64,000 bases of DNA from Acidocella sp. Its GTDB lineage: Bacteria; Pseudomonadota; Alphaproteobacteria; Acetobacterales; Acetobacteraceae. Positions 314-57,897 of this stretch are shown here, piece after piece. The translations under genes and the position numbers were made by a program. The stretch spans positions 4,251-68,250 of the forward strand of contig NZ_DASXFO010000067.1 of assembly GCF_036489515.1 (NCBI RefSeq), in the 5' to 3' direction. The stretch's first letter is position 1. The number at the start of each line of letters is the position of its first letter. The notes under the pieces are model-generated. The model made no database searches. It saw only the letters and a list, made by a program, of their open reading frames with translations, and was not told the origin of the DNA.

Positions 314-2353
314 ATGAAATTTTATTCCCTCTACGCTCAGGGGTTTGCCCGCGTGGCCGCCTGCACCACCGAGACGGCGCTGGCGGACCCCGCCCGCAAT
401 GCCGAAGCCGTGCTGGCGGCTGCCCGTGACTGCCATGAGCGCGGCGTGGCAGTGGCGGTTTTCCCGGAACTGACATTGTCGGGCTATTCCATCGAGGATC
501 TGCTGCTCCAGGACACGGTTCTGGACGCGGTGGAAGATGTCATTGCTGTCTTGGTGGCGGCGTCAAAAGAGCTGTTGCCCGTGCTGGTCGTGGGCGCGCC
601 GTTGCGCCATGCCGGCCGGCTCTACAACACGGCGCTCGTCATCCATCGCGGGCGCGTCCTGGGCGTCGTTCCGAAATCCTATCTGCCGACCTATCGGGAG
701 TTTTACGAAGGGCGGCAAATCGCGGCCGGCGACGACCTTCGCGGAGACATCACCGTCGGGGGCCAGGCCGTCCCGTTCGGCAACAACCTCATTTTCGCCG
801 CCGAGGATGTGCGCGGCCTCGCGTTGCATGTGGAGATCTGCGAGGATTTCTGGGTCCCGGTGCCGCCGAGCGCGCTCGCTGCTTTGGCCGGGGCGACCAT
901 CCTCGCGAATCTCTCCGGCAGCCCGATTACGATCGGTCGTGCCGAGAGCCGGCGGTTATTGGCGCAATCGGCCTCCATGCGCTGCCTCGCGGCCTATATC
1001 TACGCCGCGGCGGGCGCCGGGGAGAGCACGACGGAAGTCGCCTGGGATGGCCAGGTGATGATTTACGAAAACGGGGTCTGCCTGGCCGAGGCGGAACGTT
1101 TCCCCGAAGCGGGGCAATCGGTCATCGCCGATATCGACCTGGATCTGCTCCGCCAGGAACGGATGCGGATGGGGACCTTCGATGACAATCGCCGGACCCA
1201 TGTGGCGGCGGATGCGTTCCGCACCATCTCGTTCCGGCTGGCCCCGCCGATGGGCAATCTCGGTCTGCAACGCCGCGTCGAGCGCTTTCCCTTCGTGCCC
1301 TCCGACCCCGCGCGGCTGGAACAGGATTGCTTTGAGGCCTACAACATCCAGGTTTCCGGTCTGGTCCAAAGGCTCCGCGCGACCGGCCTCAAGCATGTGG
1401 TTCTGGGCATTTCCGGCGGCCTTGATTCAACCCATGCCTTGATCGTCGCGGCCCGCGCCATGGATCGGCTGGGCCTGCCGCGGCGCAATATTCTCACCTA
1501 CACCATGCCGGGCTTTGCCACCGGCGAAGACACCAAGGCCAATGCCTGGCGCCTGATGACCAGCCTCGGCACCAGCGCCAGCGAACTCGACATCCGCCCC
1601 GCCGCGCGGCAGATGCTGGCCGATCTCGGTCATCCTTTCGGTCAGGGGGAGCCGGTTTACGACATCACCTTCGAGAACGTGCAGGCGGGATTGCGGACCG
1701 ACTATCTGTTCCGCCTCGCCAACCAGAACAATGCCTTCGTCATCGGCACTGGCGACCTCTCCGAACTCGCACTCGGCTGGTGCACCTATGGCGTCGGCGA
1801 CCAGATGTCGCATTACGCCGTCAATGCCGGCGTCCCGAAAACGCTGATCCAGCATTTGATTCGCTGGGTGGCGCGCTCCGGTGGGTTCGGCGATGCGGTC
1901 GGCGCCACGCTCGAAGCGATTCTGGACACGGAAATTTCCCCCGAGCTCGTCCCGGTCGAGGCCGGCGCCACGCTGCAGAGCACGGAAGCGAAAATCGGCC
2001 CTTATGCGCTGCAGGATTTCAATTTGTACTACACGCTGCGCCACGGTTTCCGGCCTTCGAAAATCGCCTTTCTGGCTTTGCATGCCTGGGGCGACGTACA
2101 GGCCGGGGCCTGGCCGGCCCATTTTCCCGAAACGCGGCGGACGCAATACAGCCTTGGCGAGATCCGGAAATGGCTGGAGCTTTTCCTGCGGCGGTTCTTC
2201 GCCTTCAGCCAGTTCAAGCGCTCCGCCATGCCGAATGGCCCCAAAGTGGTTGCCGGCGGCTCGCTCTCCCCACGCGGCGACTGGCGCGCGCCTTCCGACG
2301 GCAACGCCACGGCCTGGCTCGATGAGTTGGCGCGCAACGTGCCGAAGGCGTAA
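314..2353 (+). CDS. nadE: Glutamine-dependent NAD+ synthetase (long form)
   Basis: N-terminal nitrilase-type glutaminase domain ([16 protein letters not shown] Cys motif). C-terminal NAD synthetase domain with PP-loop ISGGLDST. I chose the ATG at 314 because the upstream start at 251 lies in repeat sequence. Confidence 0.9.
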
Positions 2354-2397
2354 AGCGGCCGCTTTTTTGTTCACAAAAAGAAGCCTTCCCCTTCACT
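2352..2397 (+). repeat. Mosaic repeat, copy 2 (internal-deletion derivative: left half of A fused to right half of C)
   Basis: AAAGCGGCCGCTTTTTTGTTCACAAAAAGAAGCCTTCCCCTTCACT. The junction falls in the shared T-run. It lies between convergent nadE and the small minus-strand gene. Confidence 0.8.
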
Positions 2398-2430
2398 AAA
2401 ACGGCCCGGGGCGGCGCACCGTCCCGGGCT
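2397..2430 (-). terminator. Candidate intrinsic terminator of the small minus-strand gene
   Basis: On the minus strand, GCCCGGG-12 nt-CCCGGGC is followed by CGTTTTAG, about 20 nt after the stop at 2448. Confidence 0.45.
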
Positions 2431-2447
2431 TTGAGAAGGCGCCGGGT

Positions 2448-2645
2448 TCAGGAGCTCTTGGGGCCCTGATGGCCGGGTTTCCCGTGTTGCTCCTGACCAC
2501 CGCGCGTGCCAGGGGCGGTTTTTTCACGGTCGGCTTCGTTGCTCGCCGATTTTCCCGGAGGGTTGCTCGCCGGCTTGCGGCCCTGCTCGCCTGCTTTCCC
2601 TTGCTGTTCGTGAGAACGGCCGGGAGGTCCGCCCGTATTGGCCAT
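2448..2645 (-). CDS. Small hydrophilic Gly/Pro/Lys/Gln-rich protein (65 aa), function unknown
   Basis: The ATG is preceded by AAGAGGAGAGAAAC (strong SD about 6 nt upstream), and a terminator-like hairpin lies downstream. The low-complexity sequence resembles small stress-induced proteins, but I could not assign a family. Confidence 0.55.
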   Translation of the reverse strand: MANTGGPPGRSHEQQGKAGEQGRKPASNPPGKSASNEADREKTAPGTRGGQEQHGKPGHQGPKSS

Positions 2646-2761
2646 GTTTCTCTCCTCTTGATTGTTTTGAAAGACGCCATTTTTGGCTCAGTTGATATAC
2701 GCCATCCACAGGCGTCGTTTTCTCATTATTTGTTTAATTGGAATTCATCATGGTGGATGGA

Positions 2762-2866
2762 GGAAAGCGGCCGCTTTTTGAAAAAAGCGGCGCAAAAACT
2801 CCTTGTCCTCTGGGCCTGAGGCTGTGAAACCAGCACGGCTCCAAAGAAGCCTTCCTTATCTTACCT
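2762..2866 (+). repeat. Mosaic repeat, copy 3 (module A + alternative module B' + right terminus; no B or C hairpins)
   Basis: GGAAAGCGGCCGCTTTTTGAAAAAAGCGGCGCAAAAA, then CCTCTGGGCCTGAGGCTGTGAAACCAGCACGGCTCCAAAGAAGCCTTCC. The B' core GAAACCAGCACGGC recurs inverted at 28212-28262. Confidence 0.7.
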
Positions 2867-4061: not shown

Positions 4062-4369
4062 CCGCCACGATCCACGTGGAATTGCCCGCAAGCCTGCGGC
4101 AACTGGCGCAACTCAGTTTTGACACGGAGATCGACCTTGCCGTCATCGGCACGGCCAGTATTGGTGCCGTTCTCGAGAGTCTGGAGGCGCGCTATCCGGC
4201 GCTACGAGGCACAATGCGCGACCAGGACAGTAAGCGGCGGCGGCCCTTTATCCGTTTTTTCGCGTGCCAGAAGGATGTCTCGCATCAGGCTGCGGACGCG
4301 CCGCTCCCGCGTGCGGTCGCTGAAGGACGCGAACCATTCATCATCATCGGCGCCATCGCGGGAGGATGA
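4058..4369 (+). CDS. MoaD/ThiS-family ubiquitin-like small protein ending in Gly-Gly
   Basis: 103 aa, C-terminus ...GAIAGG-stop. The ATG overlaps the upstream stop (ATGA at 4058-4061). Confidence 0.7.
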
Positions 4370-4376
4370 AGCGGTA

Positions 4377-4522
4377 GGAAAGCAGCCGCTTTTTAAAAAA
4401 AGCGGCGCAAAAATTTTGCTCCGCTGGGTCACGGGCGTTGTCAGCGACAAGCCCGTGACCCAGCATCAATAAAGCTTTTTTTGCTTCTTTTTGTTCACAA
4501 AAAGAAGCCTTCCCCTTTTCTT
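4377..4522 (+). repeat. Mosaic repeat, copy 4 (full length)
   Basis: A-B-C architecture. The B stem is GGGTCACGGGC/GCCCGTGACCC and the C stem is GCTTCTTTTTG/CAAAAAGAAGC, both compensated variants. Confidence 0.9.
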
Positions 4523-4544
4523 GTCTGAGCGATATGGCAAACCA

Positions 4545-5198
4545 ATGCCCTGGACACGCGAACAGATGGCCGCGCGTGCGGCCCAAGAATTGAATGACGG
4601 CGACTACGTCAATCTGGGGATCGGCATCCCGACCCTGGTTGCCAATTACATACCGGACCATGTCGCGGTGACCTTGCAGAGCGAAAACGGCATGCTGGGG
4701 ATGGGCCCGTTTCCTGATCCGGCCGACGTCGATCCCGATCTCACCAACGCCGGAAAACAGACGATTTCTGCTCTTCCCACCTCGTCGTTCTTTTCCTCCG
4801 CCGAGAGTTTCGCCATGATTCGCGGCGGCCATATCGACCTTGCGATTCTCGGGGCGATGGAGGTTTCCGTAAAGGGCGATCTCGCGAACTGGGCCGTGCC
4901 TGGAAAATTCGTAAAAGGCATGGGGGGCGCGATGGATCTCGTCGCCGGGGTCAAACGCATCGTCGTGGTGATGGAACATACCTCGAGAGACGGCCACTCC
5001 AAGATCGTCGAAGAATGCAGCCTGCCACTGACCGGTGCGGGTGTGGTAGACTTGATCGTCACGGATCTCTGTGTGCTGGCCTGTGACAAGGTGAAGGGCG
5101 GTTTGACGCTGCGCGAGCTGGCACCGGGTGTGAGCCTTGATGAGGTAAGGCAGAAGACCGAAGCTGCCTTCAGGATAGAGGAAGCAGCCGCTTTTTGA
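4545..5198 (+). CDS. scoB: 3-oxoacid CoA-transferase, subunit B (no adjacent subunit A)
   Basis: N-terminus [16 protein letters not shown], catalytic-Glu motif LQSENG, and [15 protein letters not shown]. The last codons ...EEAAAF-TGA lie in repeat copy 5. Confidence 0.85.
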
Positions 5199-5322
5199 AA
5201 AAAGCGGCGCAAAAACTTTTACTATGCTGGGCCACGGGCGTTGTCCCCGACAAAGCCCATGGCCCAAATTAATAAAGTTTTTTTGCTACTTTTTGTTCAC
5301 AAAAAGTAGCCTTCTCTTACTC
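5180..5322 (+). repeat. Mosaic repeat, copy 5 (full length)
   Basis: A-B-C architecture. It fills the whole gap between convergent scoB and the ABC ATPase gene. Confidence 0.9.
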
Positions 5323-9750: not shown

Positions 9751-9889
9751 AAGAAAGTAGCCGCTTTTTAAAAAAAGCGGCGCAAAAACCTTTGCTAATG
9801 CTGGGCCATGGGCTTTGTCGGGGACAACGCCCATGGCTCAGGAGCAGAAAACTACTTTTTGTTCACAAAAAGTAGCCTTCCCTTCACTA
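9751..9889 (+). repeat. Mosaic repeat, copy 6 (full length)
   Basis: A-B-C architecture with the GAAAGTAGCCGC variant of A. The right terminus ...CCTTCACTA contains the pqiC stop codon (minus strand). Confidence 0.9.
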
Positions 9890-14464: not shown

Positions 14465-14514
14465 GGCGGTCGTGTAACGTTTGCCAGACGTATCGGCAAT
14501 GTAGGCTGGAAAAA

Positions 14515-14660
14515 GGAAGCAGCCGCTTTTTAAAAAAAGCGGCGCAAAAACTTCTTCTATGCTGGGCCATGGTCATTGTCGGCGACAACGCCCATGGCCC
14601 CAAGTTAACAAAGTTTTTTTGCTTCTTTTGGTTCACAAAAAGAAGTCTTTCCTCTTGCTT
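14515..14660 (+). repeat. Mosaic repeat, copy 7 (full length, slightly degenerate)
   Basis: A-B-C architecture. It lies between tandem minus-strand genes. Confidence 0.85.
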
Positions 14661-15796: not shown

Positions 15797-15952
15797 GGGA
15801 GAGAGGAAAGCGGCCGCTTTTTAAAAAAAGCGCCGCAAAAATTTTTATTGTGCTGGGCCATGGGCGATGTGACCGACAACGCCCATGGCCCAGCATAAAT
15901 AAAGTTTTTTTGCTTCTTTTTGTTCACAAAAAGAAGCCTTCCCCTTCGCTTC
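15797..15952 (+). repeat. Mosaic repeat, copy 8 (full length)
   Basis: A-B-C architecture with the GGGAGAGAGG left terminus also seen in copy 1. It lies in the divergent promoter region between the ADH gene and mmsA. Confidence 0.9.
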
Positions 15953-17584: not shown

Positions 17585-17733
17585 GGAAGCGGAGCAGAAG
17601 ACTTCTTTTTGTGAACAAAAAGAAGCAAAAAAACTTTATTAATTTGGGCCATGGGCATTGTCGGTGACAACGCCCATGGCCCAGCATCGTAAAAATTTTT
17701 GCGCCGCTTTTTTTAAAAAGCGGCCGCTTTCTA
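17585..17733 (-). repeat. Mosaic repeat, copy 9 (full length, inverted)
   Basis: C-B-A order on the plus strand. It lies between convergent mmsA and the LysR gene. Confidence 0.9.
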
Positions 17734-17740: not shown

Positions 17741-18640
17741 CTAAGCCAGATGCGTGCCAAGGTCTGCCGATGTCGCGATCGAGAGGAGCGTCCCGGCAAT
17801 CGGCGACAATGGTTCACGGTTCGGCAAAACGAGCCCTAACATCTGGGAAGCCGCGGGCTCGACAAGCGGCAATGCGCAAAGGTCAGGCATACCTCCGAGC
17901 ATGAGCTGGAATGTATGGGGCATGATGCTGGACCAGTTGCCCAAGGTCGTATGGGCATAGACGCCTAGGAATGTGTTGCTCACAACAACAGGACTGACAC
18001 GCGTGCCGACCGACGCCGTGATCTCGTCGATGATTTGGCGGTTTTGCATGGTTTCACTCAGCAAGCAGAGACGTTCCTTGGCCGCTTCCGCCCAGGTGAT
18101 TGTGCTCCTGTCTGCGAATTTTTCGCTGCGGCGGGTCACGAAAACATAGCGTTCCGTGTAGAGCGGAATGCAGCGGATATTTTCAAGTGGCTTGTGCTCG
18201 ATATAAGTGATGCCGGCATCAATCTCAAATGTCTCGATCGCGTTCTGGATGGCTCTCGAGGTCATCGATTGAACATTGATGGTGACATTGGGATGCTGCG
18301 AAGCATAAATCTGGGTGATAAAGGGGACTGCCGGCATTGCTGCGGGTATCACCCCGAGTTGAAGGGTGCCCGATAAACCGGACGGCGAGCCGCTCAGGCC
18401 TTCCCGTAGGCTGTCATAGTCGGAGAGGATGCGGCGCCCCCATTGCAGGACTTTTTCTCCGTCCGGCGTGAGCCCCATGAACCGGTGACCACGGACGACC
18501 AGGACAACTTGCAGATCTTCTTCAAGTTTTCGGATGGCGGCGGACAGGGTCGGCTGCGCTATATTGCAGATTTCGGCAGCGCGGGCGTAGTGTTTTTCAC
18601 GCGCCAGAGTCACAAAATAGGAAAGATGTCGGATTAACAT
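17741..18640 (-). CDS. LysR-family transcriptional regulator
   Basis: N-terminal HTH (ICNIAQPTLSAAIRKLE) and a LysR substrate-binding domain pattern. Confidence 0.85.
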   Translation of the reverse strand: MLIRHLSYFVTLAREKHYARAAEICNIAQPTLSAAIRKLEEDLQVVLVVRGHRFMGLTPDGEKVLQWGRRILSDYDSLREGLSGSPSGLSGTLQLGVIPAAMPAVPFITQIYASQHPNVTINVQSMTSRAIQNAIETFEIDAGITYIEHKPLENIRCIPLYTERYVFVTRRSEKFADRSTITWAEAAKERLCLLSETMQNRQIIDEITASVGTRVSPVVVSNTFLGVYAHTTLGNWSSIMPHTFQLMLGGMPDLCALPLVEPAASQMLGLVLPNREPLSPIAGTLLSIATSADLGTHLA

Positions 18641-20496: not shown

Positions 20497-20504
20497 GGCA
20501 AGCC

Positions 20505-21788: not shown

Positions 21789-21805
21789 GTTACGTGCTCA
21801 TCTGG

Positions 21806-23752: not shown

Positions 23753-23836
23753 GCGTGACTCCTGTCTTCAAATTCTGTGCGGCCGCGTCCTCTTTTTCCG
23801 GCGCATTCGGATGTTCCATGTTTCATTGTTGATCTA

Positions 23837-26387: not shown

Positions 26388-27161
26388 ATGGGTCATGAAA
26401 CATTGCTTCTTACCCAAGAGGCGGCGGTCACGGTGGTTCAGCTCAACCGCCCGCAGGCGCTGAATGCGCTGAACAGCCAGGTGCTTCAGGAACTCGGGGA
26501 AGTCTTTTCCGAATACGAGCGCGATCCTAGCAAGCGCTGCCTGATTTTAACCGGCAACGAAAAAGCCTTCGCCGCGGGCGCCGATATCAAGGAGATGCAA
26601 CCGAAGGGCTTCGCCGCCATGTACGGTGAAAATTTCTTTGCCGGCTTCGAGCGCATCACCGCGACCCGGAAGCCGTGGTTTGCGTCGGTTGCCGGATTCG
26701 CCCTGGGCGGCGGGTGCGAACTGGCGATGATGGCGGATTTCATCATCGCGGCCGATACCGCGAAATTCGGCCAGCCCGAGATCAAATTGGGGATTGGGCC
26801 AGGGATGGGGGGCTCGCAACGTCTCACCCGGGCGGTCGGCAAGGCAAAGGCGATGGAGATGTGCCTGACCGGGCGGATGATGGAGGCTGAGGAAGCTGAG
26901 CGGTGCGGCTTGGTCGCCCGGATTGTCCCAGCCAGCCAGTTGCATGAAGAAGCGTTGAAGACGGCGCAAACCATCGCCGGGATGCCGCCGCTTGGGGCGA
27001 TGGCGGTTAAGGAAATGGTGAACGCGGCCTTTGAAACCGGCCTGGCTCAAGGATTGCTGTTTGAGCGGCGTCTGTTCAACGGCCTGTGCGCCACGGCAGA
27101 CAAGGCGGAAGGAATGTCCGCCTTTATGGAAAAGCGCAAGGCGGTGTGGCAGGGGCGTTAG
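26388..27161 (+). CDS. Enoyl-CoA hydratase (crotonase family)
   Basis: FAAGADIKEM and GGGCELAMMAD motifs. ATG at 26388. Confidence 0.85.
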   Translation: MGHETLLLTQEAAVTVVQLNRPQALNALNSQVLQELGEVFSEYERDPSKRCLILTGNEKAFAAGADIKEMQPKGFAAMYGENFFAGFERITATRKPWFASVAGFALGGGCELAMMADFIIAADTAKFGQPEIKLGIGPGMGGSQRLTRAVGKAKAMEMCLTGRMMEAEEAERCGLVARIVPASQLHEEALKTAQTIAGMPPLGAMAVKEMVNAAFETGLAQGLLFERRLFNGLCATADKAEGMSAFMEKRKAVWQGR

Positions 27162-27310
27162 AAAGCGGCCGCTTTTTGAAAAAAGCGGCGCAAAAACTTT
27201 TGGCTATGCTGGGTCATGGGCGTTGTCACCGACCACGTCCATGACCCAGCATGGCAAAGTTTTTTTGCTACTTTTTGTTCACAAAAAGTAGCCTTCCCCT
27301 TCACTTACTT
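27159..27310 (+). repeat. Mosaic repeat, copy 10 (full length)
   Basis: A-B-C architecture. It begins at the hydratase TAG stop, and the B stem is GGGTCATGG/CCATGACCC. Confidence 0.9.
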
Positions 27311-28211: not shown

Positions 28212-28262
28212 GGAAGGCTTCTGTAGGCCGTGCTGGTTTCAACGCCACGGGCTCAGTCCGAG
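28212..28262 (-). repeat. Mosaic repeat fragment (right terminus + alternative module B', inverted)
   Basis: The reverse complement CCTCGGACTGAGCCCGTGGCGTTGAAACCAGCACGGCCTACAGAAGCCTTCC aligns with 2807-2855. Confidence 0.6.
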
Positions 28263-28331
28263 GCGGCAGCTTCGATGTTCCCGTCGTCCCGCTGCACCAG
28301 CACGACGAAATGCGCGCCGGCGGACGGTGGA

Positions 28332-28369
28332 GGCAAGCAGCCGCTTTTTTTAAAAAGCGGCTGCTTGCC
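28332..28369. repeat. Module-A-type perfect palindrome between convergent genes (possible bidirectional terminator)
   Basis: GGCAAGCAGCCGCTTTTT-TT-AAAAAGCGGCTGCTTGCC, with 18-bp perfect arms. It lies 5 nt from the coxG-like stop. Confidence 0.7.
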
Positions 28370-28373
28370 TTCT

Positions 28374-33691: not shown

Positions 33692-33840
33692 GGAAGAAAG
33701 CGGCCGCTTTTTAAAAAAAGCGCCGCAAAAATTTTTGTTATGCTGGGCCATGGGCTGTGTCGGCGACAACGCCCATGGCCCAGCACAATAAAGTTTTTTT
33801 GCTACTTTTTGTTCACAAAAAGTAGCCTTCCCTTGCTCTA
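33692..33840 (+). repeat. Mosaic repeat, copy 12 (full length)
   Basis: A-B-C architecture. It lies upstream of the coxM-like gene and abuts the SDR remnant. Confidence 0.9.
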
Positions 33841-34068: not shown

Positions 34069-34157
34069 GTAAGCAAAAATAAAGGAAGGCTAGTTTTTGT
34101 GAACAAAAATTAGCAAAAAACTTCGCCAATCTGGGTCGGAAGCGTGGTCGCCGACAA
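34069..34157 (-). repeat. Mosaic repeat, copy 13 (truncated, inverted: right terminus + degenerate C + half of B)
   Basis: GTAAGCAAAAATAAAGGAAGGCTAGTTTTTGTGAACAAAAATTAGCAAAAAAC...CTGGGTCGGAAGCGTGGTCGCCGAC. Confidence 0.65.
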
Positions 34158-34348
34158 AAAACCCCGGCAATGCCGGGCGTTTCAGCGGCAAGCCAAAAAA
34201 ATATGCAATAAATGCAAGCCGCTATGTGCTCTACGCCAAATGCATTTCGCGCATACCCCAGAAAAATTCACAAGTTTTTCAACCAGAAGCTGCTGACTCC
34301 CCGGCTTCGGGTGGTGACGAACGCGCCTCGGTGCATTAGGAATGGTTA

Positions 34349-34842: not shown

Positions 34843-34976
34843 CTCGGAGAGAAGTAAGCAGCCGCTTACTTCTGCTATGCTGGGCCATGGGCGTTGTCAT
34901 CGACAGCGCCCATGGCCCAGATTAATAAAGTTTTTTTGCTACTTTTTGTTCCCAAAAAGTAGCCTCCCTTCCTTTG
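34843..34976 (+). repeat. Mosaic repeat, copy 14 (module A replaced by a short palindrome GAAGTAAGC-AGCC-GCTTACTTC; B and C intact)
   Basis: The left terminus CTCGGAGAGA matches copy 1. The C loop is TTCC instead of TTCA. Confidence 0.85.
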
Positions 34977-35083
34977 ACAAACCCGACCCGCGCATCAGTC
35001 CATTGTTTTTGCGCGGCATCTCTGCCAAGCCAGAACGCGCTAAACAGGTCCACCTCTCTGCCATTTTTATAGCCCTGGCGCCC

Positions 35084-38193: not shown

Positions 38194-38345
38194 GGAAAAG
38201 GAAGGCTACTTTTTGTGAACAAAAAGTAGCAAAAAAAACTTTGTTAATTTGGGTCATGGGCTTTGGCGCTGACAACGCCCATGGCCCAGCATAACAAAAA
38301 TTTTTGCGCCGCTTTTTTTAAAAAGCGGCTGCTTCCTTCTCTTCA
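38192..38345 (-). repeat. Mosaic repeat, copy 15 (full length, inverted)
   Basis: C-B-A order on the plus strand. It contains the last 9 codons and the stop of the flavoprotein gene. Confidence 0.9.
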
Positions 38346-40143: not shown

Positions 40144-41192
40144 GACATCGAGAAGCGGAATGTCTCGGCGACCATGCCCGGGCCAAAAGCCATGGCCAGG
40201 CCAAGCTGCCCAGGTGCTGCGCTCCGCAGCATGCCGGCCAGCACGAACATCACGGTGGCGGAGGACATATTCCCCTGCGCCGCGAGCACCACGCGCGACG
40301 GTGCCAGCGCCGCCTCCGGCAAGCCCAAGCCCGCCTGCACCGCATCCAGCACCGTGCGCCCGCCGCCATGCACGGCCCACAGATCAATCTTCTGGTCCTC
40401 CCCCCGCAACAGCGTCCGCGGCGAGTCGCGTAAGGTGCGCAAGATCGCCACCGGCACCTGGCCGGAGAGGTGCATGACAAACCCCTGATCGCCAATCTGC
40501 CAGGTAATATATTCCTCGGTTCCGGGGATCAACACGTTCACGAAATCGCCCAGGCAGAGCCCCTCCGGTTCCGCCGTCACCAGCGCCGCCGCAGCACCAT
40601 CGCCGAACAGCAGGGACGAGAGCGCCTCCTCCAGGCCCGTGGTTTCCTGCAAATGCAGCGTGCACAGCTCGACATTCACGACCAGCACCCGCGCCGCCGG
40701 ATCGGCCAGCACGATCGCCTGCGCCGCGCGCAAGGCTGGAACCGCGGCGGAACAGCCCATGAAGCCGATCAGCAGCCGCTGCAGATCAGGCCGCAGCCCG
40801 AGCTGTCGCGCTAAAATCTGGTCCAGCCCGGGGGCGACGAAGCCGGTGCAGGATGCGAGGATGAGATGCGTCACATCCCGCACCGGCCGGCCCAGCGCCT
40901 CGACAGCCTGCATGGCCAGAACCGGCGCGTGCGTGGCGTAGGCACGCATGCGCGCCGCCGTCCCCGGATAGGCGCCACGGCGGTAGAATCCCTCCCGCGC
41001 CTCATCCGCCTCGACCATGCCGTCCTGTTGCAGCACCGAATAGCGGTGCGCGATGCCGGCACGATCGGCCATCCGCTCGAACACGATACGGTGCCGCCCG
41101 TCCAGCGCCTTGGCGATGAAATCGCGGTACGCCGCGTGGATGTCATGCGGCGGTATGGCCGTGCCGATGCGATTGATGAAAGCACGGTTCAT
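40140..41192 (-). CDS. Type III polyketide synthase (chalcone/stilbene synthase family)
   Basis: Cys-His-Asn triad contexts: LILASCTGFVAPG, WAVHGGGRTVLD, GNMSSATVMFVL. ATG at 41192 with GAGG upstream. Confidence 0.85.
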   Translation of the reverse strand: MNRAFINRIGTAIPPHDIHAAYRDFIAKALDGRHRIVFERMADRAGIAHRYSVLQQDGMVEADEAREGFYRRGAYPGTAARMRAYATHAPVLAMQAVEALGRPVRDVTHLILASCTGFVAPGLDQILARQLGLRPDLQRLLIGFMGCSAAVPALRAAQAIVLADPAARVLVVNVELCTLHLQETTGLEEALSSLLFGDGAAAALVTAEPEGLCLGDFVNVLIPGTEEYITWQIGDQGFVMHLSGQVPVAILRTLRDSPRTLLRGEDQKIDLWAVHGGGRTVLDAVQAGLGLPEAALAPSRVVLAAQGNMSSATVMFVLAGMLRSAAPGQLGLAMAFGPGMVAETFRFSMS

Positions 41193-41225
41193 GTCCTCTA
41201 TCTGTGCCACCGCCGGAACGGATCA

Positions 41226-41296
41226 AGGGAAGGAGAACTTCTTTTTGTAACCACAAAGAAACCTTTGTAACCCAAAAGCGGCCACTTTCCTCTCCT
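41226..41296 (-). repeat. Mosaic repeat, degenerate deletion derivative (inverted) immediately upstream of the PKS gene
   Basis: GGAAGGAGAACTTCTTTTTGTAACCACAAAGAA...AAAAGCGGCCACTTTCCTCTCC, that is a C remnant fused to an A remnant and the left terminus. Confidence 0.55.
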
Positions 41297-41527
41297 TCGA
41301 AGCCGGCCTGGCGCATGCCCTCACGGCAATTTTCCGCCCGGCCTTCCTTGCCCTGGGCCGCTACAGAACCGGCCCAATTCTTGACACAATGGAGGCCTAA
41401 TCGCCGCAGTGTCGTTTACGTATCGTTACAGCTAACCCCGCCACCTGCGGAACGGAGCCTCGTCTTTCATGTCGCCCTGCCTCACCCGGAACGAACGCTA
41501 CGCTGAACAGCGCCACGGAGCGCGGGC

Positions 41528-41737
41528 ATGAGCTTTTTCGATGCGGGCAAAAAACGCTTCAATTGGGCCCCGTCCCTACCGCTGCAGACCTCCGTCCGCG
41601 CCGAGCCAGGCTGCGTGCAATGCGGCAGCCGGCTCGAATCGGCGGCCGTCGGAAAGCTCAATTTTTTAGGGACATGCTTCAACTGCTCGGTCTGGGTGTC
41701 CGAGGATGACGAGGACTTCGAAGAGCTCGAGGACTGA
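41528..41737 (+). CDS. Small zinc-ribbon protein with acidic tail (69 aa), function unknown
   Basis: CVQC...CFNC pairs and a C-terminal SEDDEDFEELED. GGAGCG lies 8 nt upstream of the ATG. Confidence 0.45.
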   Translation: MSFFDAGKKRFNWAPSLPLQTSVRAEPGCVQCGSRLESAAVGKLNFLGTCFNCSVWVSEDDEDFEELED

Positions 41738-41740: not shown

Positions 41741-41886
41741 GGAAGTAAGCGGCCGCTTTTTAAAAAAAGCGGCGCAAAAATTTTTTTACGCTGGGGCATG
41801 GGCGTTGTCGCTGACGCAACCCATGACCCGGCATAGCAAAGTTTTTTTGCTACTTTTTGTTCACAAAAAGTAGTCCCTTACTTCCT
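41741..41886 (+). repeat. Mosaic repeat, copy 16 (full length, with an exact 9-nt terminal inverted repeat)
   Basis: Left end GGAAGTAAG and right end CTTACTTCC. The right end overlaps the speE stop. Confidence 0.9.
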
Positions 41887-47743: not shown

Positions 47744-47789
47744 ATTTCCCCCAAAACAGATCAGCGCCCGGCCAAGTGCCGTGCCAACT

Positions 47790-47980
47790 GACCCCCCTCT
47801 GTTTTGGGACCTGAGAGATTCGGGCGCGGTGACGCCCTTGACCCCGTCGGTGCGGCGGAGATTCGCCGGCTTTCCAGAGTGTCCCGCTTACGAACGCAGC
47901 CCTTTTGCCTGAGCGTTTCCGGGGGCCGGTTGCGCCTTCGGCGGCGGGTAAAGTCCCCCGCTCTCTCCTGCGTCCGAATA
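47790..47980 (-). promoter_or_regulatory. Tandem glycine riboswitch (two aptamers) in the gcvT leader
   Basis: Minus-strand aptamer 1: ACGCAGGAGAGAG...CGCCGAAGGCGCAA...CTCAGGCAAAAGGGCTGCGT. Aptamer 2: CTCTGGAAAG...GCACCGACGGGGTCAA...CTCTCAGGTCCCAAAACAGAGG. Confidence 0.9.
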
Positions 47981-48046: not shown

Positions 48047-48160
48047 GGCAAAGAGAAGACTACTTTTTGTGAACAAAAAGTAGCAAAAAAACTTTGTTAT
48101 GCTGGGCTATCGGCTTTGTCTGGGACGAGGCCCATGGCCTAGGCTTCTTTCCTATCTCCA
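48047..48160 (-). repeat. Mosaic repeat, copy 17 (inverted; C intact, B degenerate, A absent)
   Basis: AGAAGACTACTTTTTGTGAACAAAAAGTAGCAAAAAAACTTTGTTATGCTGGGCTATCGGC...CCCATGGCCTAGGCTTCTTTCC. Confidence 0.75.
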
Positions 48161-49471: not shown

Positions 49472-49622
49472 GGAGAAGAAAGCACTACTTTTTGTGAACA
49501 AAAAGTAGCAAAAAAACTTTGCTCTGCTGGGCCATGGGCGTTGTCGCCGACACAGCCCCAGGCCCAGAGTCGCAAAAGTTTTTGCGCCGCTTTTTTTAAA
49601 AAGCGGCTACTTTCCTTTACCT
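49472..49622 (-). repeat. Mosaic repeat, copy 18 (full length, inverted)
   Basis: C-B-A order on the plus strand. It lies between convergent cbpM and pdxJ, and the pdxJ TAA lies in the left terminus. Confidence 0.9.
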
Positions 49623-52108: not shown

Positions 52109-52262
52109 AGCGAAGCGGAAGACTACTTTTTGTGAACAAAAAGTAGCAAAAAAACTTTGTTAATGCTGGGTCATGGGCGTTGTCAGTGACAACGCCCATG
52201 ACCCAGCATAGCCAAAAGTTTTTGCGCCGCTTTTTTTAAAAAGCGGCCGCTTTCTTGCCTGA
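52109..52262 (-). repeat. Mosaic repeat, copy 19 (full length, inverted; B is a perfect 22-3-22 palindrome at 52163-52209)
   Basis: ATGCTGGGTCATGGGCGTTGTC-AGT-GACAACGCCCATGACCCAGCAT. Confidence 0.9.
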
Positions 52263-52289
52263 GCGGGTCCGGCATGGCTTATTCCTAAC

Positions 52290-53492
52290 ATGCCCCCCCT
52301 TTCCGCCCGTATCGGCCGAACCCAACTTGCCGCCACCTTCGCCATGGCCGCGCGCGCCCGCGCGCTGCGCGCCGCAGGACAGGACGTCATTTCCCTCTCC
52401 CTCGGCGAGCCGGATTTTCCGACCCCCGACCATGTGATCCACGCCGCCTACGAAGCGGCACGGCGCGGCGAGACCAAATACCCGCCGCTCGCCGGCACCG
52501 AGGCGCTCAAGGCCGCGATCGCGAAAAAATACCTGCGCGACCAGAAGCTCGACGTGCCGGTGCAGAACATCCTGGTCACCAATGGCGGCAAGCAGGCGAT
52601 TTTCAATGTCATCATGGCGGTGATCGACGAGGGCGACGAGGTGATCATCCCCGCCCCCGCCTGGGCCGGCTATGAACAGACCGTGCAATTCGCCGGCGGC
52701 CGCACCGTGTTCATCCCGTGTCCACAGGAGCAGAATTTTGTGCTCCGGCCGGAAGCGCTGGAAGCCGCCATCACCCCGCGCACCCGCCTGCTGCTGCTGA
52801 ATTACCCGAACAACCCTTCCGGCGCCGCCTGCGATGAAGCGGCCCTTTCCGCCATCGCCGAGGTGCTGCGCCGCCATCCGGATATCTGGGTGCTGTCGGA
52901 CGATATTTATGAGCATCTGCTGTTCGACGATTTCCGCTACGCGACGCTGGCGGCGGTGGCGCCGGATCTGGCCGAGCGCATCGTGACCATGACCGGCGTG
53001 TCAAAAACCTATGCCATGACCGGCTGGCGCATCGGCTTCTGCGCCGGCCCGGCGGCGCTGATCAAGGCGATGACCGTGGCGCAGGCGACCGCCACCTCCG
53101 GCGTCTCCTCGGTAGGCCAGGCGGCGGCGCTGGCGGCGCTGGAAGGCAAGCAGGATTATTTGGAGGAACGCCGCGCCGCGTACCAGGCACGGCGCGATCT
53201 GGTTGTGGCGCGGCTGCGCGAGGCGCCGGGCCTGTCCTGTCACACTCCTGACGGCGCGTTCTATGTCTTTCCGGATATTTCCGGCTGCATCGGCAAAACC
53301 ACGCCGGGCGGAACAAAAATCCTCAGCGACGATGATTTCGCCATGGCGCTGCTGAACGAGGCACACGTGGCTGTGGTGCAGGGCTCGGCCTTCGCCATGA
53401 GCCCGCATATCCGCATCTCCACCGCCACCGCCGAGGCGGTGCTGGCCCGCGCCTGCGCGCGAATCGCCGATTTCTGCGCCGGGCTGCGCTGA
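52290..53492 (+). CDS. Aspartate/aromatic-type PLP-dependent aminotransferase (class I)
   Basis: PLP-Lys context GVSKTYAMTGWRIG and NYPNNPSG. Confidence 0.85.
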   Translation: MPPLSARIGRTQLAATFAMAARARALRAAGQDVISLSLGEPDFPTPDHVIHAAYEAARRGETKYPPLAGTEALKAAIAKKYLRDQKLDVPVQNILVTNGGKQAIFNVIMAVIDEGDEVIIPAPAWAGYEQTVQFAGGRTVFIPCPQEQNFVLRPEALEAAITPRTRLLLLNYPNNPSGAACDEAALSAIAEVLRRHPDIWVLSDDIYEHLLFDDFRYATLAAVAPDLAERIVTMTGVSKTYAMTGWRIGFCAGPAALIKAMTVAQATATSGVSSVGQAAALAALEGKQDYLEERRAAYQARRDLVVARLREAPGLSCHTPDGAFYVFPDISGCIGKTTPGGTKILSDDDFAMALLNEAHVAVVQGSAFAMSPHIRISTATAEAVLARACARIADFCAGLR

Positions 53493-53575: not shown

Positions 53576-53998
53576 ATGAAGCCTTTATATTACGCACACG
53601 GCCACGCCACCGGCGGCCGCACCGGCCAAGGTGCGAGCGATGACGGAAGGTTGTCGGTGCAGCTCAGCACGCCCAAGGAACTGGGCGGCGATGGCGGGCC
53701 GGGCACCAATCCGGAGCAGATGTTCTCCATCGGCTATTCCGCCTGTTTCCTCGGCGCGATGAAATTCGTCGCCGGCAAAGAGAAGGTGCAGCTGCCGCCG
53801 GAAACGAAAGTGTCGGCCGAGATCGGCATCGGCCCACGCGATGACGGCGCCGGATTCGGCATCACCGCGGCGCTGACGATCACCGCACCCGGCGTGGAAA
53901 AAGCCGCTCTCGAAGATCTGGTGCAGAAGGCGCATATCGTCTGCCCCTATTCCAACGCCATCCATAAGACGGTGGACGTGAAGCTCACCGTCGCCTGA
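53576..53998 (+). CDS. ohr: Organic hydroperoxide resistance protein (Ohr/OsmC family)
   Basis: Conserved Cys contexts GYSACFLGA and HIVCPYSNA. GGAGG SD. Confidence 0.85.
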   Translation: MKPLYYAHGHATGGRTGQGASDDGRLSVQLSTPKELGGDGGPGTNPEQMFSIGYSACFLGAMKFVAGKEKVQLPPETKVSAEIGIGPRDDGAGFGITAALTITAPGVEKAALEDLVQKAHIVCPYSNAIHKTVDVKLTVA

Positions 53999-54141
53999 GG
54001 CAAGGAAGGCTTCTTTTTGTGAACAAAAAGAAGCAAAAAAACTTTTTTATGCTGGGCCATGGGCGTTGTCAGCGACAACGCCCATGGCCCAGCGGACCAA
54101 AAATTTTTGCGCCGCTTTTTTTAAAAAGCGGCTACTTCCCT
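53999..54141 (-). repeat. Mosaic repeat, copy 20 (full length, inverted)
   Basis: C-B-A order on the plus strand. It lies between convergent ohr and the LysR gene, and the LysR TAG stop lies in GAAGTAGCC of the left terminus. Confidence 0.9.
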
Positions 54142-55013
54142 GCCATCGCCTCCTCCACAAAACTGGCGAATTGCCTGGCCTTGGCGCTGGCCATGCGGCC
54201 GGTGGGAAACACCACCCACAGGTCGATCGGCGGCAAGGTCCAAGCTTGCAGTAGTTTTCTCACGGCGCCGCTCGCCAGTTCAGGCGCGAACATCCAGTCC
54301 GAGGCGATGGTCAGGCCGATATCGGCCAGCACCGCGGCGCGCAGGCCTTCCGCAGCGCTTGTCCGCACGCGCCCGTGCACCGCAACCGACACCGCCGCGC
54401 CATCGCGCATGAATGACCAGACGCTCGGCATTTGGCTGTAGACCACCGTCTCATGTTCGGCGAGATCCGCCGGGCTGTGCGGTTCTCCAGCCTTTGCGAG
54501 ATAGCCGGGTGTCGCGAACACTGATCGCCCTCCGGTCGCCAGCTTGCGCGCCACCGCCGACGAGTCAGCTAACGCCCCCATGCGCAGCGACAGATCCACC
54601 CCTTCGGCAACCAGGTCGATCACGCGATCGTCGAGGATGATTTCGATGTCGAGCTCGGGATGGGCCTCGAGAAAACGCGGCAAGATCGGCATGATGTGCA
54701 AGCGCGCGAAGGTAGTCGCCGCCGAGACGCGCAGCCGGCCGGTCAGCCCCGCGCCTGCGCCGCGCGCGGCGATTTCGGCTTCATCGGCCTCCTGAATCGC
54801 GGCGCGGGCGCGCTCGTAGAAGCGTAAGCCCGCCTCGGTCGGGCTGAGGCCGTGCGTGGAGCGGATCAGCAGGCTCACCTGCAGCCGGGTCTCCAGTTGA
54901 GCAATTGTTTTGGAGATCGCCGGCTGGCCGACATTCAGCTGGCGCGCGGCTGCGGAAAAAGAGCCGGTTTCCACCACCCGCACGAAGGTCGCCATTGCCT
55001 GATGCCGGTCCAT
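54132..55013 (-). CDS. LysR-family transcriptional regulator (divergent from the peroxiredoxin-like gene)
   Basis: HTH MATFVRVVETGSFSAAARQLNVGQPAISKTIAQLE. ATG at 55013. Confidence 0.85.
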   Translation of the reverse strand: MDRHQAMATFVRVVETGSFSAAARQLNVGQPAISKTIAQLETRLQVSLLIRSTHGLSPTEAGLRFYERARAAIQEADEAEIAARGAGAGLTGRLRVSAATTFARLHIMPILPRFLEAHPELDIEIILDDRVIDLVAEGVDLSLRMGALADSSAVARKLATGGRSVFATPGYLAKAGEPHSPADLAEHETVVYSQMPSVWSFMRDGAAVSVAVHGRVRTSAAEGLRAAVLADIGLTIASDWMFAPELASGAVRKLLQAWTLPPIDLWVVFPTGRMASAKARQFASFVEEAMAGK

Positions 55014-55138
55014 GCCATTCCTTTCAGGAATTGGCATTATCGCCTTGAGCCTTCTGCCATGTCCAGCACCAAAGAGGCATGTTTCTGATCGCGATGCGGA
55101 TTGGCCGTTTCGCCCCCCAAGGCAAAAGGACCCTCCCC

Positions 55139-55810
55139 ATGTCACTCCAGGACAGACTCGACGCCTTCAAGGCCGATTTCGAGGCGGGCAAGCCGCCCTA
55201 CGAAACTCGCCCCGCGGTGATCGAGACCATGCACCGGGCCACCGCTGAACTGATCGCCTCCGGCGCCGCCGGCCGCGCGCTGAAAGCCGGCGACAAGGCA
55301 CCCGCCTTCATCCTTAACGACCCCGAGGGCAACGCCGTCTCCTCAGCCGATTTGTTGGCCAAGGGGCCATTGGTGCTCAGCTTCTATCGGGGCGTGTGGT
55401 GCCCCTATTGCAACATGGACCTGCAGGCGCTGCAGGCGGCGCTGCCCGCAGTGCAAAATCTCGGTGCCAGCCTGGTTGCCATCTCCCCGCAGAACGCGCC
55501 CAACAGCCGCAAATCGGTGCGCCAGAACGGGCTCGGCTTCCCGATCCTCTCGGACCCGCACAACGATGTTGCCGCAGCCTTCGGCCTGCGCTTCGAACTG
55601 CCGGACTATCTGGTCGAGCTGTATAAGGGGTTCAAGAACGACCTGCCGACGTTCAACGGCGATCCGAGTTGGACGCTGCCGATGCCGGCGCGTTTCGTGA
55701 TCGGGCAGGACGGGACCATCCTCTATGCCGAGGTGAACCCGGATTATACGCGCCGCCCCGATCCGGAGGAGATGCTGCCGGTGCTGCGCGGCGCCCTCGT
55801 CAAAGCTTGA
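55139..55810 (+). CDS. AhpC/TSA (redoxin)-family peroxiredoxin-like protein
   Basis: FYRGVWCPYCN CxxC motif. Confidence 0.75.
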   Translation: MSLQDRLDAFKADFEAGKPPYETRPAVIETMHRATAELIASGAAGRALKAGDKAPAFILNDPEGNAVSSADLLAKGPLVLSFYRGVWCPYCNMDLQALQAALPAVQNLGASLVAISPQNAPNSRKSVRQNGLGFPILSDPHNDVAAAFGLRFELPDYLVELYKGFKNDLPTFNGDPSWTLPMPARFVIGQDGTILYAEVNPDYTRRPDPEEMLPVLRGALVKA

Positions 55811-55861
55811 TGCAACCAGAACGTCCCCCGTACCGTACCGGTGCGGGGGGCGGATGTTGCT

Positions 55862-56686
55862 CTAGCCTTGGATGAAAGCCAGCAGGTCGGCGTTGATGGT
55901 GGCCGCCTCGGTCGTCGGCATGCCGTGCGGGAAGCCTTTATAGGTTTTCAGGGTGCCGTTTTTTACCAGTTTCGCCGAGAGTGGCCCGGAATCGGCATAG
56001 GGCACGATCTGGTCGTCATCGCCATGCATCACCAGCACCGGCACCGAGATCTTCTTCAGGTCTTCGGTGAAGTCGGTCTGTGAGAAGGCGACGATGCCGT
56101 CATAATGCGCCTTGGCCCCGCCCATCATGCCTTGGCGCCACCAATTCCAGATCACGCCCGGCGCGGGCTTCGCGCCGGGCCGATTGTAGCCATAGAACGG
56201 TCCGGACGGCACATCGTAATAGAACTGGGCGCGGCTGGCGGCGAGTTGGGCCTGCAGCCCGTCGAATACCTCCTTGGGCAGGCCTCCCGGATTGGCCTCC
56301 GTTTTCACCATCAATGGTGGCACCGCGCTGATGAGCACCGCTTTCGCCGCGCGGCTTTCGCCGTGGCGCGCCAGATAGTGCACCACTTCGCCGCCCCCCG
56401 TGGAGTGGCCGACATGCACCGCGTCCTTCAGATCCAGATGTGCGGTCAGAGCCGCGAGGTCGTCGGCATAATGATCCATGTCATGGCCGCTGCCGGTCTG
56501 CGTGGAGCGGCCATGGCCGCGCCGGTCATGCGCGATCACGCGGAAGCCCTGGGCGAGGAAGAAGAGCATCTGCGTGTCCCAATCGTCCGCCGAGAGCGGC
56601 CAGCCATGGCTGAACACGATGGGCTGCCCCATGCCCCAGTCCTTGTAGAAGATTTCGGTGCCATCCGTGGTGGTGATCGTAGACAT
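55862..56686 (-). CDS. Alpha/beta hydrolase of the non-haem haloperoxidase (chloroperoxidase) type
   Basis: N-terminus [26 protein letters not shown], and nucleophile elbow GHSTGG. Confidence 0.8.
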
Positions 56687-57174
56687 GAGCTCGACCCTTT
56701 CCTGTTGGGAAGCTGAACAGCCCTGATGTCGATCGACGTCGATCGCGGCATGGAAAACGTGCGGAACGTCGACCTATAATGCTATGATAAACGAGATATT
56801 GTCAGGCGCCGCAGCGTTACATTCCCATGCAACGCTGTCACGAGCGACCAAAGCTGCGGCAGGATTTTGTGAGGCACAGCAAGTGATCACGAAACACCGG
56901 GATTATCTCAACCTAACGATCTCTCAATGGCAATTCAAGCCGATTCGGTTTATCGCTACGTTAGCTCCTGGAATTGAATTTTCCTTATATAATGCACGAA
57001 ATTAAAAATTCTGTTCCGACCCTGAAGAGTTGCAGCCTGCTCTCGTTTATACGGCAATGATCTCAATTATCGATTTGTTTTTTCTTTAAGATTTTATCGG
57101 TCAAACTGAAATCTAATTGAGCCGCAATACCGTCAACTTCGGACACGACCATAAAACCAAAAAGGGACACAACC

Positions 57175-57711
57175 ATGAGCAAGACGACATCCGCAGGCAA
57201 AACGCACACGCGGGAATATCTTGGTACACCAACTGATTTAACAGCGGAGGCCACGAAAGATATTTCCGCTGCCTTGAGTGGATTGCTGGCCGACGCTTTT
57301 GCCCTTTACATGAAGACGAAAAATTTCCACTGGCATATGAGTGGCCGCCACTTTAGAGACTACCATCTGCTGCTCGACGAGCACGCGACGCAAATTTTTG
57401 CCATGACGGACCCGATTGCCGAACGGGCGCGCAAAATTGGCGGCACGACACTGCGCTCCATTGGCCAGATTTCCAAGCAGCAACGTATCCTCGACAACGA
57501 CGCGGACTATGTCGAACCGCAGGACATGCTGGCCGAATTACGCGATGACAACAAGCAGCTGACGTCAAGCTTGCGGCAGGTCCATAATGTCTGCGACGAA
57601 TATGGCGACGTCGCCACCGCGAGCCTGCTTGAAACCTGGATCGATGAAACCGAGCGGCGCACCTGGTTCCTCTTCGAAGCAACCCGCGACACTTTTGGCC
57701 ATAACGAATAG
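57175..57711 (+). CDS. dps: Dps-family DNA-protection/ferritin-like protein
   Basis: Ferroxidase-site context KNFHWHMSGRHFRDYHLLLDEH. Confidence 0.9.
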   Translation: MSKTTSAGKTHTREYLGTPTDLTAEATKDISAALSGLLADAFALYMKTKNFHWHMSGRHFRDYHLLLDEHATQIFAMTDPIAERARKIGGTTLRSIGQISKQQRILDNDADYVEPQDMLAELRDDNKQLTSSLRQVHNVCDEYGDVATASLLETWIDETERRTWFLFEATRDTFGHNE

Positions 57712-57737
57712 GCCGCTCTAGACCGGCTTATCGGGTA

Positions 57738-57897
57738 TAAGAAAGCAGCCGCTTTTTAAAAAAAGCGGCGCAAAAATTTTTGGTCCTCTGGGCCATGGGC
57801 GTTGGGCGTTGTCACCGACAACGCCCATGGCCCAGATTATAGAAGTTTTTTTGCTACTTTTTGTTCACAAAAAATAGTCTTCCCTTGCACTTACCTC
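57738..57897 (+). repeat. Mosaic repeat, copy 21 (full length; 7-nt tandem duplication GGGCGTT in the left arm of B)
   Basis: A-B-C architecture. It lies between convergent dps and the PQQ-propeller gene. Confidence 0.9.

Follow-up and report, generated by a model that had tools for sequence, protein, structure and literature searches.

What fills the gap between two bacterial genes that run tail to tail, and how did it come to be there? The question is raised by a 64,000-nucleotide stretch of an Acidocella sp. genome (Acetobacteraceae; contig NZ_DASXFO010000067.1, positions 4,251 to 68,250), here called the window, in which a composite palindromic repeat of ~140 bases stands at nine of the ten tail-to-tail (convergent) gene junctions. 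A preliminary description of this DNA proposed that the repeat is a bidirectional terminator or insulator, or else that it inserts preferentially at the 3′ ends of genes. Both proposals find partial support here, and the evidence suggests that the two effects act together. On balance, we regard the element, named A-B-C after its three modules, as a mobile mosaic akin to repetitive extragenic palindromic (REP) sequences and miniature inverted-repeat transposable elements (MITEs), with a two-way terminator-like core, that has been kept where termination would be harmless or useful.

The repeat is made up of arm A, a GC-rich hairpin (B) set between A/T-rich linkers, and arm C, both arms being palindromic; its consensus is AAGAAAGC(A/G)GCCGCTTTTTAAAAAAAGCGGCGCAAAAATTTTTGnTATGCTGGGCCATGGGCGTTGTCnnnGACAACGCCCATGGCCCAGCATAAnAAAGTTTTTTTGCTACTTTTTGTTCACAAAAAGTAGCCTTCCCTT. 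Three approaches agreed on this definition: a repeat search, a mismatch-tolerant (Hamming) scan for the modules and an nhmmer profile derived from an alignment of 15 copies. The element ends in 8-nt inverted repeats (AAGRAAGC ... GCTTYCTT), with a sharp boundary in a profile of 60 copies, and arms A and C are both laid out as clamp, T5, centre, A5, clamp. The whole unit is an imperfect palindrome, and every copy also scores on the opposite strand (~60 versus ~150 bits in nhmmer). The window contains 22 element sites, of which 15 are full A-B-C copies, 6 are partial and 1 is a decayed relic (Table 1); the arms are near-identical at these 22 unrelated sites, and the copies form AT-rich islands within a genome of 62% GC. 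Among the partial forms, an A/C hybrid has lost B, others are short of all of A or half of C, and one rearranged copy contains an insert of 80 nt. Their extents were refined on re-reading of the sequence, and the relic (41222-41300) was found by re-reading only.

Gene context was established from Pfam annotation of ~55 open reading frames (ORFs), together with a gene caller based on codon usage and trained on long ORFs. The 54 internal junctions of the window comprise 10 convergent, 10 divergent and 34 co-directional ones; the left neighbour gene of the copy at 116..250 runs past the window edge, and this copy was hence given no junction class. The solid convergent junctions are scoB/ABC, SDR/pqiC, mmsA/LysR, DLH/coxG, HlyD/flavoprotein, Zn-ribbon/speE, cbpM/pdxJ, ohr/LysR, AhpC/abhydrolase and dps/PQQ. 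All of these except AhpC/abhydrolase carry the element, eight as a full copy and DLH/coxG as the rearranged one, compared with 6 of 34 co-directional and 3 of 10 divergent junctions (4 of 10 with the relic). This excess holds against all other junctions together (9/44; one-sided Fisher p = 7.5e-5), against divergent junctions (p = 0.0099) and against those co-directional junctions that have a true spacer (6/14; p = 0.024).

The enrichment claimed in the preliminary description therefore stands, but its count of ten filled junctions among eleven becomes nine among ten, because the proposed eleventh, nadE/small gene, was dropped: ORF 2396-2680(-) has a codon score of -17.6, finds no homologue among 5.8 billion proteins and overlaps a strong private hairpin (~2403-2431). 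Two other small genes both look real: 34349-34834 encodes a lipoprotein with a lipobox, and 41528-41737 a protein with a CxxC...CxxC pattern. The DLH/coxG junction is filled, as had been said, although not by a solitary arm A; the rearranged copy joins a C-side end and the remnant of a second-type B hairpin (B2; 28212-28258) to arm A (28331-28370) across ~80 nt of other sequence. The only element-free convergent junction (55811-55861) does carry a private GC-rich hairpin, as first described; it is of 14 bp and without a U tract.

The contact between repeat and genes is close. Three ORFs (scoB, the flavoprotein and the LysR regulator) terminate inside arm A (5179-5198, 38318-38338 and 54132-54141), and the repeat supplies their last residues and stop codons (5196-5198 in scoB). 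The longest ORFs of scoB, DLH and FUSC begin inside copies (4491-4544, 27251-27364 and 34877-35002), and these start calls are therefore probably wrong.

The same placement recurs in other genomes. An exact scan for arm C, with one genome per species, returned at least 114 blocks of 8 kb from ~30 assemblies; the 24-nt arm occurs exactly in at least 30 genomes, and the matches listed all fall within the Acetobacteraceae/Acetobacterales (Acidocella, Rhodovastum and metagenome-assembled genomes). Over ~900 kb of such arm-C-bearing blocks from ~30 genomes, with genes called by the same caller of our own, the element was found, among the matches listed, at 54 of 93 convergent (58%), 92 of 451 co-directional (20%) and 4 of 85 divergent junctions (5%), and the order convergent > co-directional >> divergent holds under stricter gene thresholds. 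The idea that the element is specific to convergent junctions finds no support, since ~60% of the copies in other genomes (among the matches listed) sit at co-directional junctions, lying a median of 9 nt past the upstream stop codon and 58 nt ahead of the next start; counted from stop codons in general, the median distance of copies is 8-9 nt.

Nor does the element keep a direction. Genes read into the A side of 13 window copies (9 convergent and 4 co-directional), which agrees with the number first reported; the orientation rule drawn from it fails, as genes read into the C side of 11, and full copies at co-directional junctions elsewhere are C-first in 33 cases and A-first in 16 (p = 0.02). 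The element is therefore not tied to one orientation with respect to transcription, as a near-palindrome would lead one to expect. Elsewhere the arms are reshuffled into C-B-C and A-B-A orders besides A-B-C, together with further arm variants, and they are nearly always found inside the composite element. The repeat has probably multiplied in one branch of the Acetobacteraceae, as a non-autonomous mobile element of the kind represented by REPs, bacterial interspersed mosaic elements (BIMEs) and MITEs.

The copy at 33694..33834 folds on both strands into a three-hairpin junction (-78 kcal/mol; z = -10.6 and -8.7), composed of a closing stem formed by the inverted ends, hairpin A, the long hairpin B and hairpin C. 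In the consensus fold of the window copies, the stems of A and C are 11 bp long, and the long hairpin B has A5:U5 as its outermost pairs. Conservation was followed across 73 copies from ~25 genomes. In arm A, the clamp shows covariation (from GCCGC/GCGGC to GTTCT/AGAAC, among other changes, with 9-13 sequences per pair); in arm C, one pair flips between UA and AU, and a GTAG within the stem alternates with GAAG by compensatory change (41 versus 29 copies). B is hypervariable in sequence and length and falls into two main types but keeps its hairpin form, while the linkers CAAAAACTTTT and AAAGTTTTTTTGC remain at least 90% conserved as B changes sequence and type. The symmetric A/T flanks of B that were pointed out in the window are thus a property of the family across genomes.

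The layout of the core is GCAAAAA(C/T)TTTT - hairpin - AAAGTTTTTTTGC, and either strand presents an A tract, a GC-rich hairpin with a CUUU:AAAG base and then directly U7 (read A to C) or U5 (read C to A). This is the layout of a bidirectional intrinsic terminator, and from this anatomy and its conservation we infer that transcription would end at the element in both directions. Junctions that carry the element keep no other hairpin, and private GC hairpins occur where it is absent (55822-55852, ~2403-2431 and the TauE/ADH site of a related genome, L019), as would be expected if the core served as the terminator.

The preliminary description missed the mobile, REP/MITE-like nature of the repeat, which orthologous sites reveal through presence and absence, inversion, nesting and decay. 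L019, an Acidocella metagenome-assembled genome, is syntenic with 10.9-19.4 kb of the window at ~80% nucleotide identity. Its TauE/ADH site has a private GC hairpin with T4 in place of the element, its divergent ADH/mmsA site lacks the element, and its mmsA/LysR copy is inverted relative to that of the window and has a 54-nt insert nested in B. Further comparisons came from the contexts of PdxJ homologues (L195-L198 and others), which carried independent gene calls. L195, L196 and L197 (PdxJ identity 90-96%) have the cbpM/pdxJ copy in the orientation seen in the window, whereas L198 (82% pdxJ identity; a 3.2-Mb contig) has no copy in 13.7 kb, and its pdxJ and cbpM overlap within a small AT-rich palindrome. 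The dps/PQQ copy is inverted, with different flanks, in the closest relative, L195, which also has a full copy in the gcv riboswitch/cbpA region where the window copy is without arm A. Four states exist among five genomes at the aminotransferase/DUF3309 junction: L195 matches the window, L197 has other arms, L196 retains a footprint and L198 is empty.

Among orthologous co-directional pairs in the sampled blocks, the element was present in one genome only in 6 and shared in 3; for convergent pairs, 2 were shared by automated count and 2 more at block edges, with none one-sided, all of these being small numbers. Empty sites are not simple and hold private hairpins or footprints. In-situ inversion as the sole cause of flipped copies was rejected, as the flanks differ between the flipped versions (L019 and L195). 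That one junction has repeatedly been occupied independently, in either orientation, speaks for a degree of targeting or for very frequent insertion.

Three observations were made alongside these comparisons. The ~54-nt insert in L019 (6368-6425; CCCTCCGGGGCTATTCC...CAGCCCCTCC) forms a hairpin of its own within the 3′ arm of the B hairpin; possibly it is another small mobile element, with hairpins as its target. In L195 (1314-2582, compared with window 53576-56686), the LysR-AhpC pair is absent, and ohr and the abhydrolase gene face each other directly with a truncated copy (arm A and half of B) between them; this suggests a deletion or insertion with its joint in the repeat. In the Acidocella-like L201 (7220-7320) and L202 (7220-7260), a palindromic repeat of another kind (GGGGTCCAGGGGCAGAGCCCCTGG...) lies at the convergent junction that follows pdxJ, and its ends in L201 (GGAAAGGCC...GGCCTTTCC) resemble those of A-B-C; different repeat families may use the same kind of site, or may share ends.

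We propose that arms A and C probably serve mobilization, and that the centre would act as a bidirectional Rho-independent terminator, with an A tract, a GC-rich hairpin of free sequence and AAAG followed by T5-7, symmetric between strands. New copies would insert or persist almost exclusively a short way past stop codons, where a two-way terminator would be harmless or could substitute for a weak native one; copies within operons or between a promoter and its gene would be purged by selection, and tail-to-tail pairs would consequently approach saturation. Such a mobile element with a terminator core would explain the order of the junction classes and the proximity to stop codons, and also why orientation does not matter and why the tracts are conserved next to a hairpin of free sequence. 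Mobility, biased placement, structure and conserved tracts are observed here; the stop of transcription, the mode of movement and the share of the bias due to targeting (for example, of AT-rich stop-codon contexts in a GC-rich genome) as opposed to purifying selection are inferred.

Several points weigh against this proposal. A stop of transcription at the element is deduced from its anatomy. A simple terminator and promoter scan did not flag B and gave no excess over shuffled sequences, flagging only arms A and C read outwards, so the case for a terminator rests on anatomy and conservation and not on the scan. An AU-rich extension separates the U tract from the strong portion of the stem, and a role in termination leaves the strong conservation of arms A and C unexplained. 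Some copies separate genes that adjoin each other in relatives (L024/L020 versus L062/L108), and a strong terminator at such a place would be polar; three or four of the ten divergent junctions in the window are occupied. The blocks from other genomes were picked for containing arm C, which inflates absolute occupancy but not the ratios between classes. On the side of mobility, neither a target-site duplication nor a flanking motif appeared in 60 copies or in comparisons of filled and empty sites; and all 28 genes flanked by two copies in the window and ~1 Mb of fragments look ordinary, none being transposase-like on reading of the translations. The Pfam annotation of the window likewise includes nothing transposase-like, no systematic search for a parent insertion sequence having been made. 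The flanks themselves are purine-rich on the left and pyrimidine-rich on the right, and thus continue the inverted repeat.

A bolder version of the proposal, possible if doubtful, is that a self-spreading two-way terminator cassette has taken over termination at ~90% of tail-to-tail pairs in this lineage and displaced private hairpins, the arms being recognition sites of a mobilizing enzyme that leaves no target duplication. At the other extreme, the repeat could be purely selfish and without effect on transcription, its 3′ and convergent bias reflecting promoter-free spacers as a safe haven, possibly with an AT-rich or stop-codon target. The high turnover, the inverted copies at the same junctions in relatives, the many decayed copies and the stop codons that abut element ends would all suit this account, as would the pdxJ/cbpM overlap in L198, which has no terminator of any kind, so that none is required there. 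We nevertheless consider it unlikely, given that the A/T tracts beside B are conserved while B itself drifts or is exchanged, a sign that a layout like that of a terminator is under constraint, that compensatory changes keep the hairpins paired, and that other hairpins are missing from junctions with the element and present at those without it. A role at the level of DNA is decidedly improbable. Phased A/T tracts and cruciform-prone palindromes could bind gyrase or a nucleoid protein and relieve positive supercoiling between convergent genes, as has been proposed for BIMEs in E. coli and for GapR in Caulobacter, and the AT-rich islands, the palindromic arms conserved in sequence across genera and the near saturation of convergent junctions would agree with this. 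The binding remains hypothetical, with no recognizable known site identified, the tolerance of G:U in pair changes suggests selection on RNA rather than DNA, and the predominance of co-directional copies elsewhere does not fit.

Two further explanations have very little probability. One is that the element is an ancestral, non-mobile terminator or insulator motif that evolved in the host and was conserved vertically at gene ends. The common orientation of the cbpM/pdxJ copy in four related genomes and the more frequent sharing of convergent than of co-directional copies would be expected of such a motif, but it is largely refuted by presence and absence, inversion, nesting and shuffled architecture at orthologous sites, by the empty 13.7 kb of L198 and by near-identical arms at unrelated places in the window. 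The other, for which we see hardly any chance, is that the element signals regulation or DNA uptake, its arms being binding sites of a transcription factor or uptake sequences. Exact conservation of arm C in so many genomes is in its favour and, as a lead only, AAAAAGCGGC is loosely like the Pasteurellaceae uptake signal ACAAGCGGT; yet the element is depleted from divergent, promoter-bearing regions, the arm clamps covary rather than hold their sequence, the arms rarely occur outside the composite, and uptake sequences, unlike A-B-C copies, are common inside genes.

The mobile mosaic that we favour has its closest parallels among REPs. In E. coli, ~60% of REPs are convergent, 40% tandem and 1% divergent, ~30% of convergent junctions have a REP, and REPs act as terminators or stabilizers depending on context (bioRxiv 10.64898/2026.03.23.713779); a similar location bias exists in many other species, and REPs of the CGTC type are missing in Acetobacteraceae (PMC3733652). 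The placement rule is therefore not new, being classical for REPs; what stands out is the near saturation of convergent junctions (~90% in the window) and the explicit terminator-like core. A-B-C resembles the REPs and BIMEs of E. coli and Pseudomonas in being a high-copy extragenic palindrome, a mosaic of hairpin units and linkers, placed at convergent and tandem junctions and rarely between divergent genes, with positions that differ between strains and the same proposed roles (terminator, attenuator, stabilizer of mRNA 3′ ends). It differs from them in that it has no conserved GTAG/CGTC head (the GTAG of arm C lies in the stem and covaries to GAAG, and arm A is headless), in the AT-rich centres of its arms (T5...A5) where REP stems are GC-rich, and in being a fixed three-hairpin module of ~140 bp with inverted ends of its own. 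No RAYT gene was seen with it in the window and ~1 Mb of fragments, and identity as a RAYT-type REP was rejected given the covarying GTAG.

Among MITEs, the Correia elements of Neisseria (CREE/NEMIS) and enterobacterial ERIC/IRU sequences share with A-B-C a non-coding length of ~100-150 bp, an overall palindromic form, terminal inverted repeats, presence/absence polymorphism and folding into long RNA hairpins; the Correia elements, which RNase III cleaves, can have terminator or promoter activity. Whereas Correia elements duplicate TA, A-B-C shows no target-site duplication in 60 copies; its inverted ends are only ~8 nt, the A-tract/hairpin/T-tract centre is explicit, and neither a site for integration host factor (IHF; by eye) nor a known parent insertion sequence was identified. 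Hairpin arms at both ends and the lack of a duplication would fit elements derived from IS200/IS605; the flanks of 60 copies showed no conserved tetra- or pentanucleotide. For E. coli and B. subtilis, intrinsic terminators that work in both directions between convergent genes have been described genome-wide, and the strand-symmetric succession of A tract, GC-rich hairpin and T tract right after two facing stop codons is like theirs; the A-B-C core would differ in being borne by a repeated mobile unit with extra arms rather than by a unique local sequence, and its U tract follows an AU-rich stem extension and not the GC stem itself. BOX of Streptococcus pneumoniae and RIME of Rhizobium are modular intergenic mosaic repeats with structured RNA that affect the expression of their neighbours. 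They resemble A-B-C in having modules of variable content, but have no sequence relationship to it, live in other hosts, include a tandemly repeated boxB and lack a pronounced terminator-like centre. The alphaproteobacterial SOS box (GTTC-N7-GTTC), the IHF site and an uptake sequence were compared by eye only; the resemblance was weak and the context wrong.

A-B-C thus seems to be a new family within a known kind of REP-type element. No account of it in Acetobacteraceae was found in the literature searched, the coverage of which was incomplete, so that an earlier description is possible. At the gathering threshold, Rfam recognized only a pair of glycine riboswitches in the window, and a permissive scan added only sub-threshold microRNA-hairpin noise; the element matches no family. 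A BLAST search of a plasmid collection gave no match to the element. A PdxJ-based scan of metagenomes yielded 80 loci, most of them distant, with the element in none, and the sole close locus (L115) has a different neighbour gene.

Table 1. Sites of the A-B-C repeat and private hairpins in the window
Feature	Position	Strand	Evidence and remarks
Full A-B-C copy, variant without T7 tract	116..250	+	nhmmer 129 bits, model positions 2-142; upstream of nadE
Hybrid copy: left half of arm A and right half of arm C, B deleted	2352..2392	+	module scan, nhmmer, re-reading; begins directly after nadE stop codon
Private GC-rich hairpin, downstream of nadE	~2403..2431	.	within doubtful ORF 2396-2680(-)
Partial copy: arm A, second-type B hairpin (B2), right half only of arm C	2761..2862	+	nhmmer, re-reading
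Full copy, co-directional BNR-protein/scoB junction	4376..4516	+	137 bits (nhmmer)
Full copy, convergent scoB/ABC-ATPase junction	5179..5317	+	153 bits (nhmmer), ORF list, Pfam; scoB stop codon within arm A
Full copy without T7 tract, convergent SDR/pqiC junction	9751..9884	+	nhmmer, alignment, Pfam
Full copy, co-directional TauE(-)/ADH(-) junction, read C-first	14513..14653	+	nhmmer
Full copy, divergent ADH/mmsA junction	15804..15945	+	nhmmer
Full copy, convergent mmsA/LysR junction	17594..17732	-	nhmmer
Full copy, co-directional enoyl-CoA hydratase/DLH junction	27160..27300	+	Pfam, nhmmer
Rearranged copy, convergent DLH/coxG junction	28212..28370	-	module scan, nhmmer, re-reading
Full copy, divergent coxM/lipoprotein region	33694..33834	+	158 bits (nhmmer); copy used for folds
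Partial copy: arm C variant and degenerate B, divergent coxM/lipoprotein region	34082..34158	-	nhmmer, re-reading
Copy with internal arm A deletion, co-directional lipoprotein/FUSC junction	34852..34969	+	nhmmer, re-reading
Full copy, convergent HlyD/flavoprotein junction	38197..38338	-	nhmmer, Pfam; flavoprotein ORF extends into arm A
Decayed relic: degenerate arm C and right half of arm A, B lost; divergent PKS/Zn-ribbon junction (PKS, polyketide synthase)	41222..41300	-	repeat search, re-reading
Full copy, convergent Zn-ribbon/speE junction	41743..41878	+	nhmmer, Pfam
Copy without arm A, divergent region between gcv glycine riboswitch and cbpA	48051..48150	-	nhmmer, re-reading
Full copy occupying the entire gap between cbpM and pdxJ stop codons (convergent)	49477..49616	-	nhmmer
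Full copy, co-directional DUF3309/aminotransferase junction, read C-first	52114..52256	-	nhmmer
Full copy, convergent ohr/LysR junction	54003..54141	-	nhmmer, Pfam; arm A contains the end of the LysR ORF
Private 14-bp GC hairpin without U tract, element-free convergent AhpC/abhydrolase junction	55822..55852	.	junction 55811-55861
Full copy with 7-nt duplication in B, convergent dps/PQQ junction	57739..57886	+	nhmmer

The neighbourhood of the copies includes several other features. The lone CoA-transferase subunit gene (scoB-like) is preceded by 480 nt without a convincing ORF and by a repeat copy (4062-4545), and no partner subunit gene lies nearby. A stretch of low GC at ~18000-24000 (0.53 versus ~0.63 elsewhere), with an operon of prkA, DUF444 and spoVR-like genes, is free of the repeat at all its junctions, and the flanking LysR/SpoVR and PrkA/PLD junctions are also without a copy. 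An operon for a type III polyketide synthase, a methyltransferase and an FAD-dependent oxidoreductase (38333-41210, minus strand) has repeat copies at both borders. The tandem glycine riboswitch aptamers (RF00504; 69.6 and 45.7 bits) lie at 47789-47980 on the minus strand, upstream of gcvT-gcvH-gcvP, and the partial repeat at 48051-48150 sits just past them. A conserved inverted repeat (GGCATGGC-N8-GCCATGCC), unrelated to A-B-C, overlaps the aminotransferase start codon in the window (52257-52292) and in L195-L198, five genomes in all, and may be a 5′ regulatory hairpin.

The family is already of practical consequence as an annotation hazard, with ORFs extended into copies and stop codons lying inside them; it also marks the joints of rearrangements, and its variable positions could be used for strain typing in Acidocella-like bacteria. 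If the terminator reading is true, the element would be a clean natural case of a mobile bidirectional terminator that saturates convergent junctions, at ~90% compared with ~30% for the REPs of E. coli, and would offer both a system in which to ask how much of the termination signal of a genome is supplied by repeats and a possible compact two-way terminator part for GC-rich alphaproteobacteria. Were the bolder cassette version also true, the terminators of these bacteria would be supplied and renewed by a mobile element instead of evolving locally.

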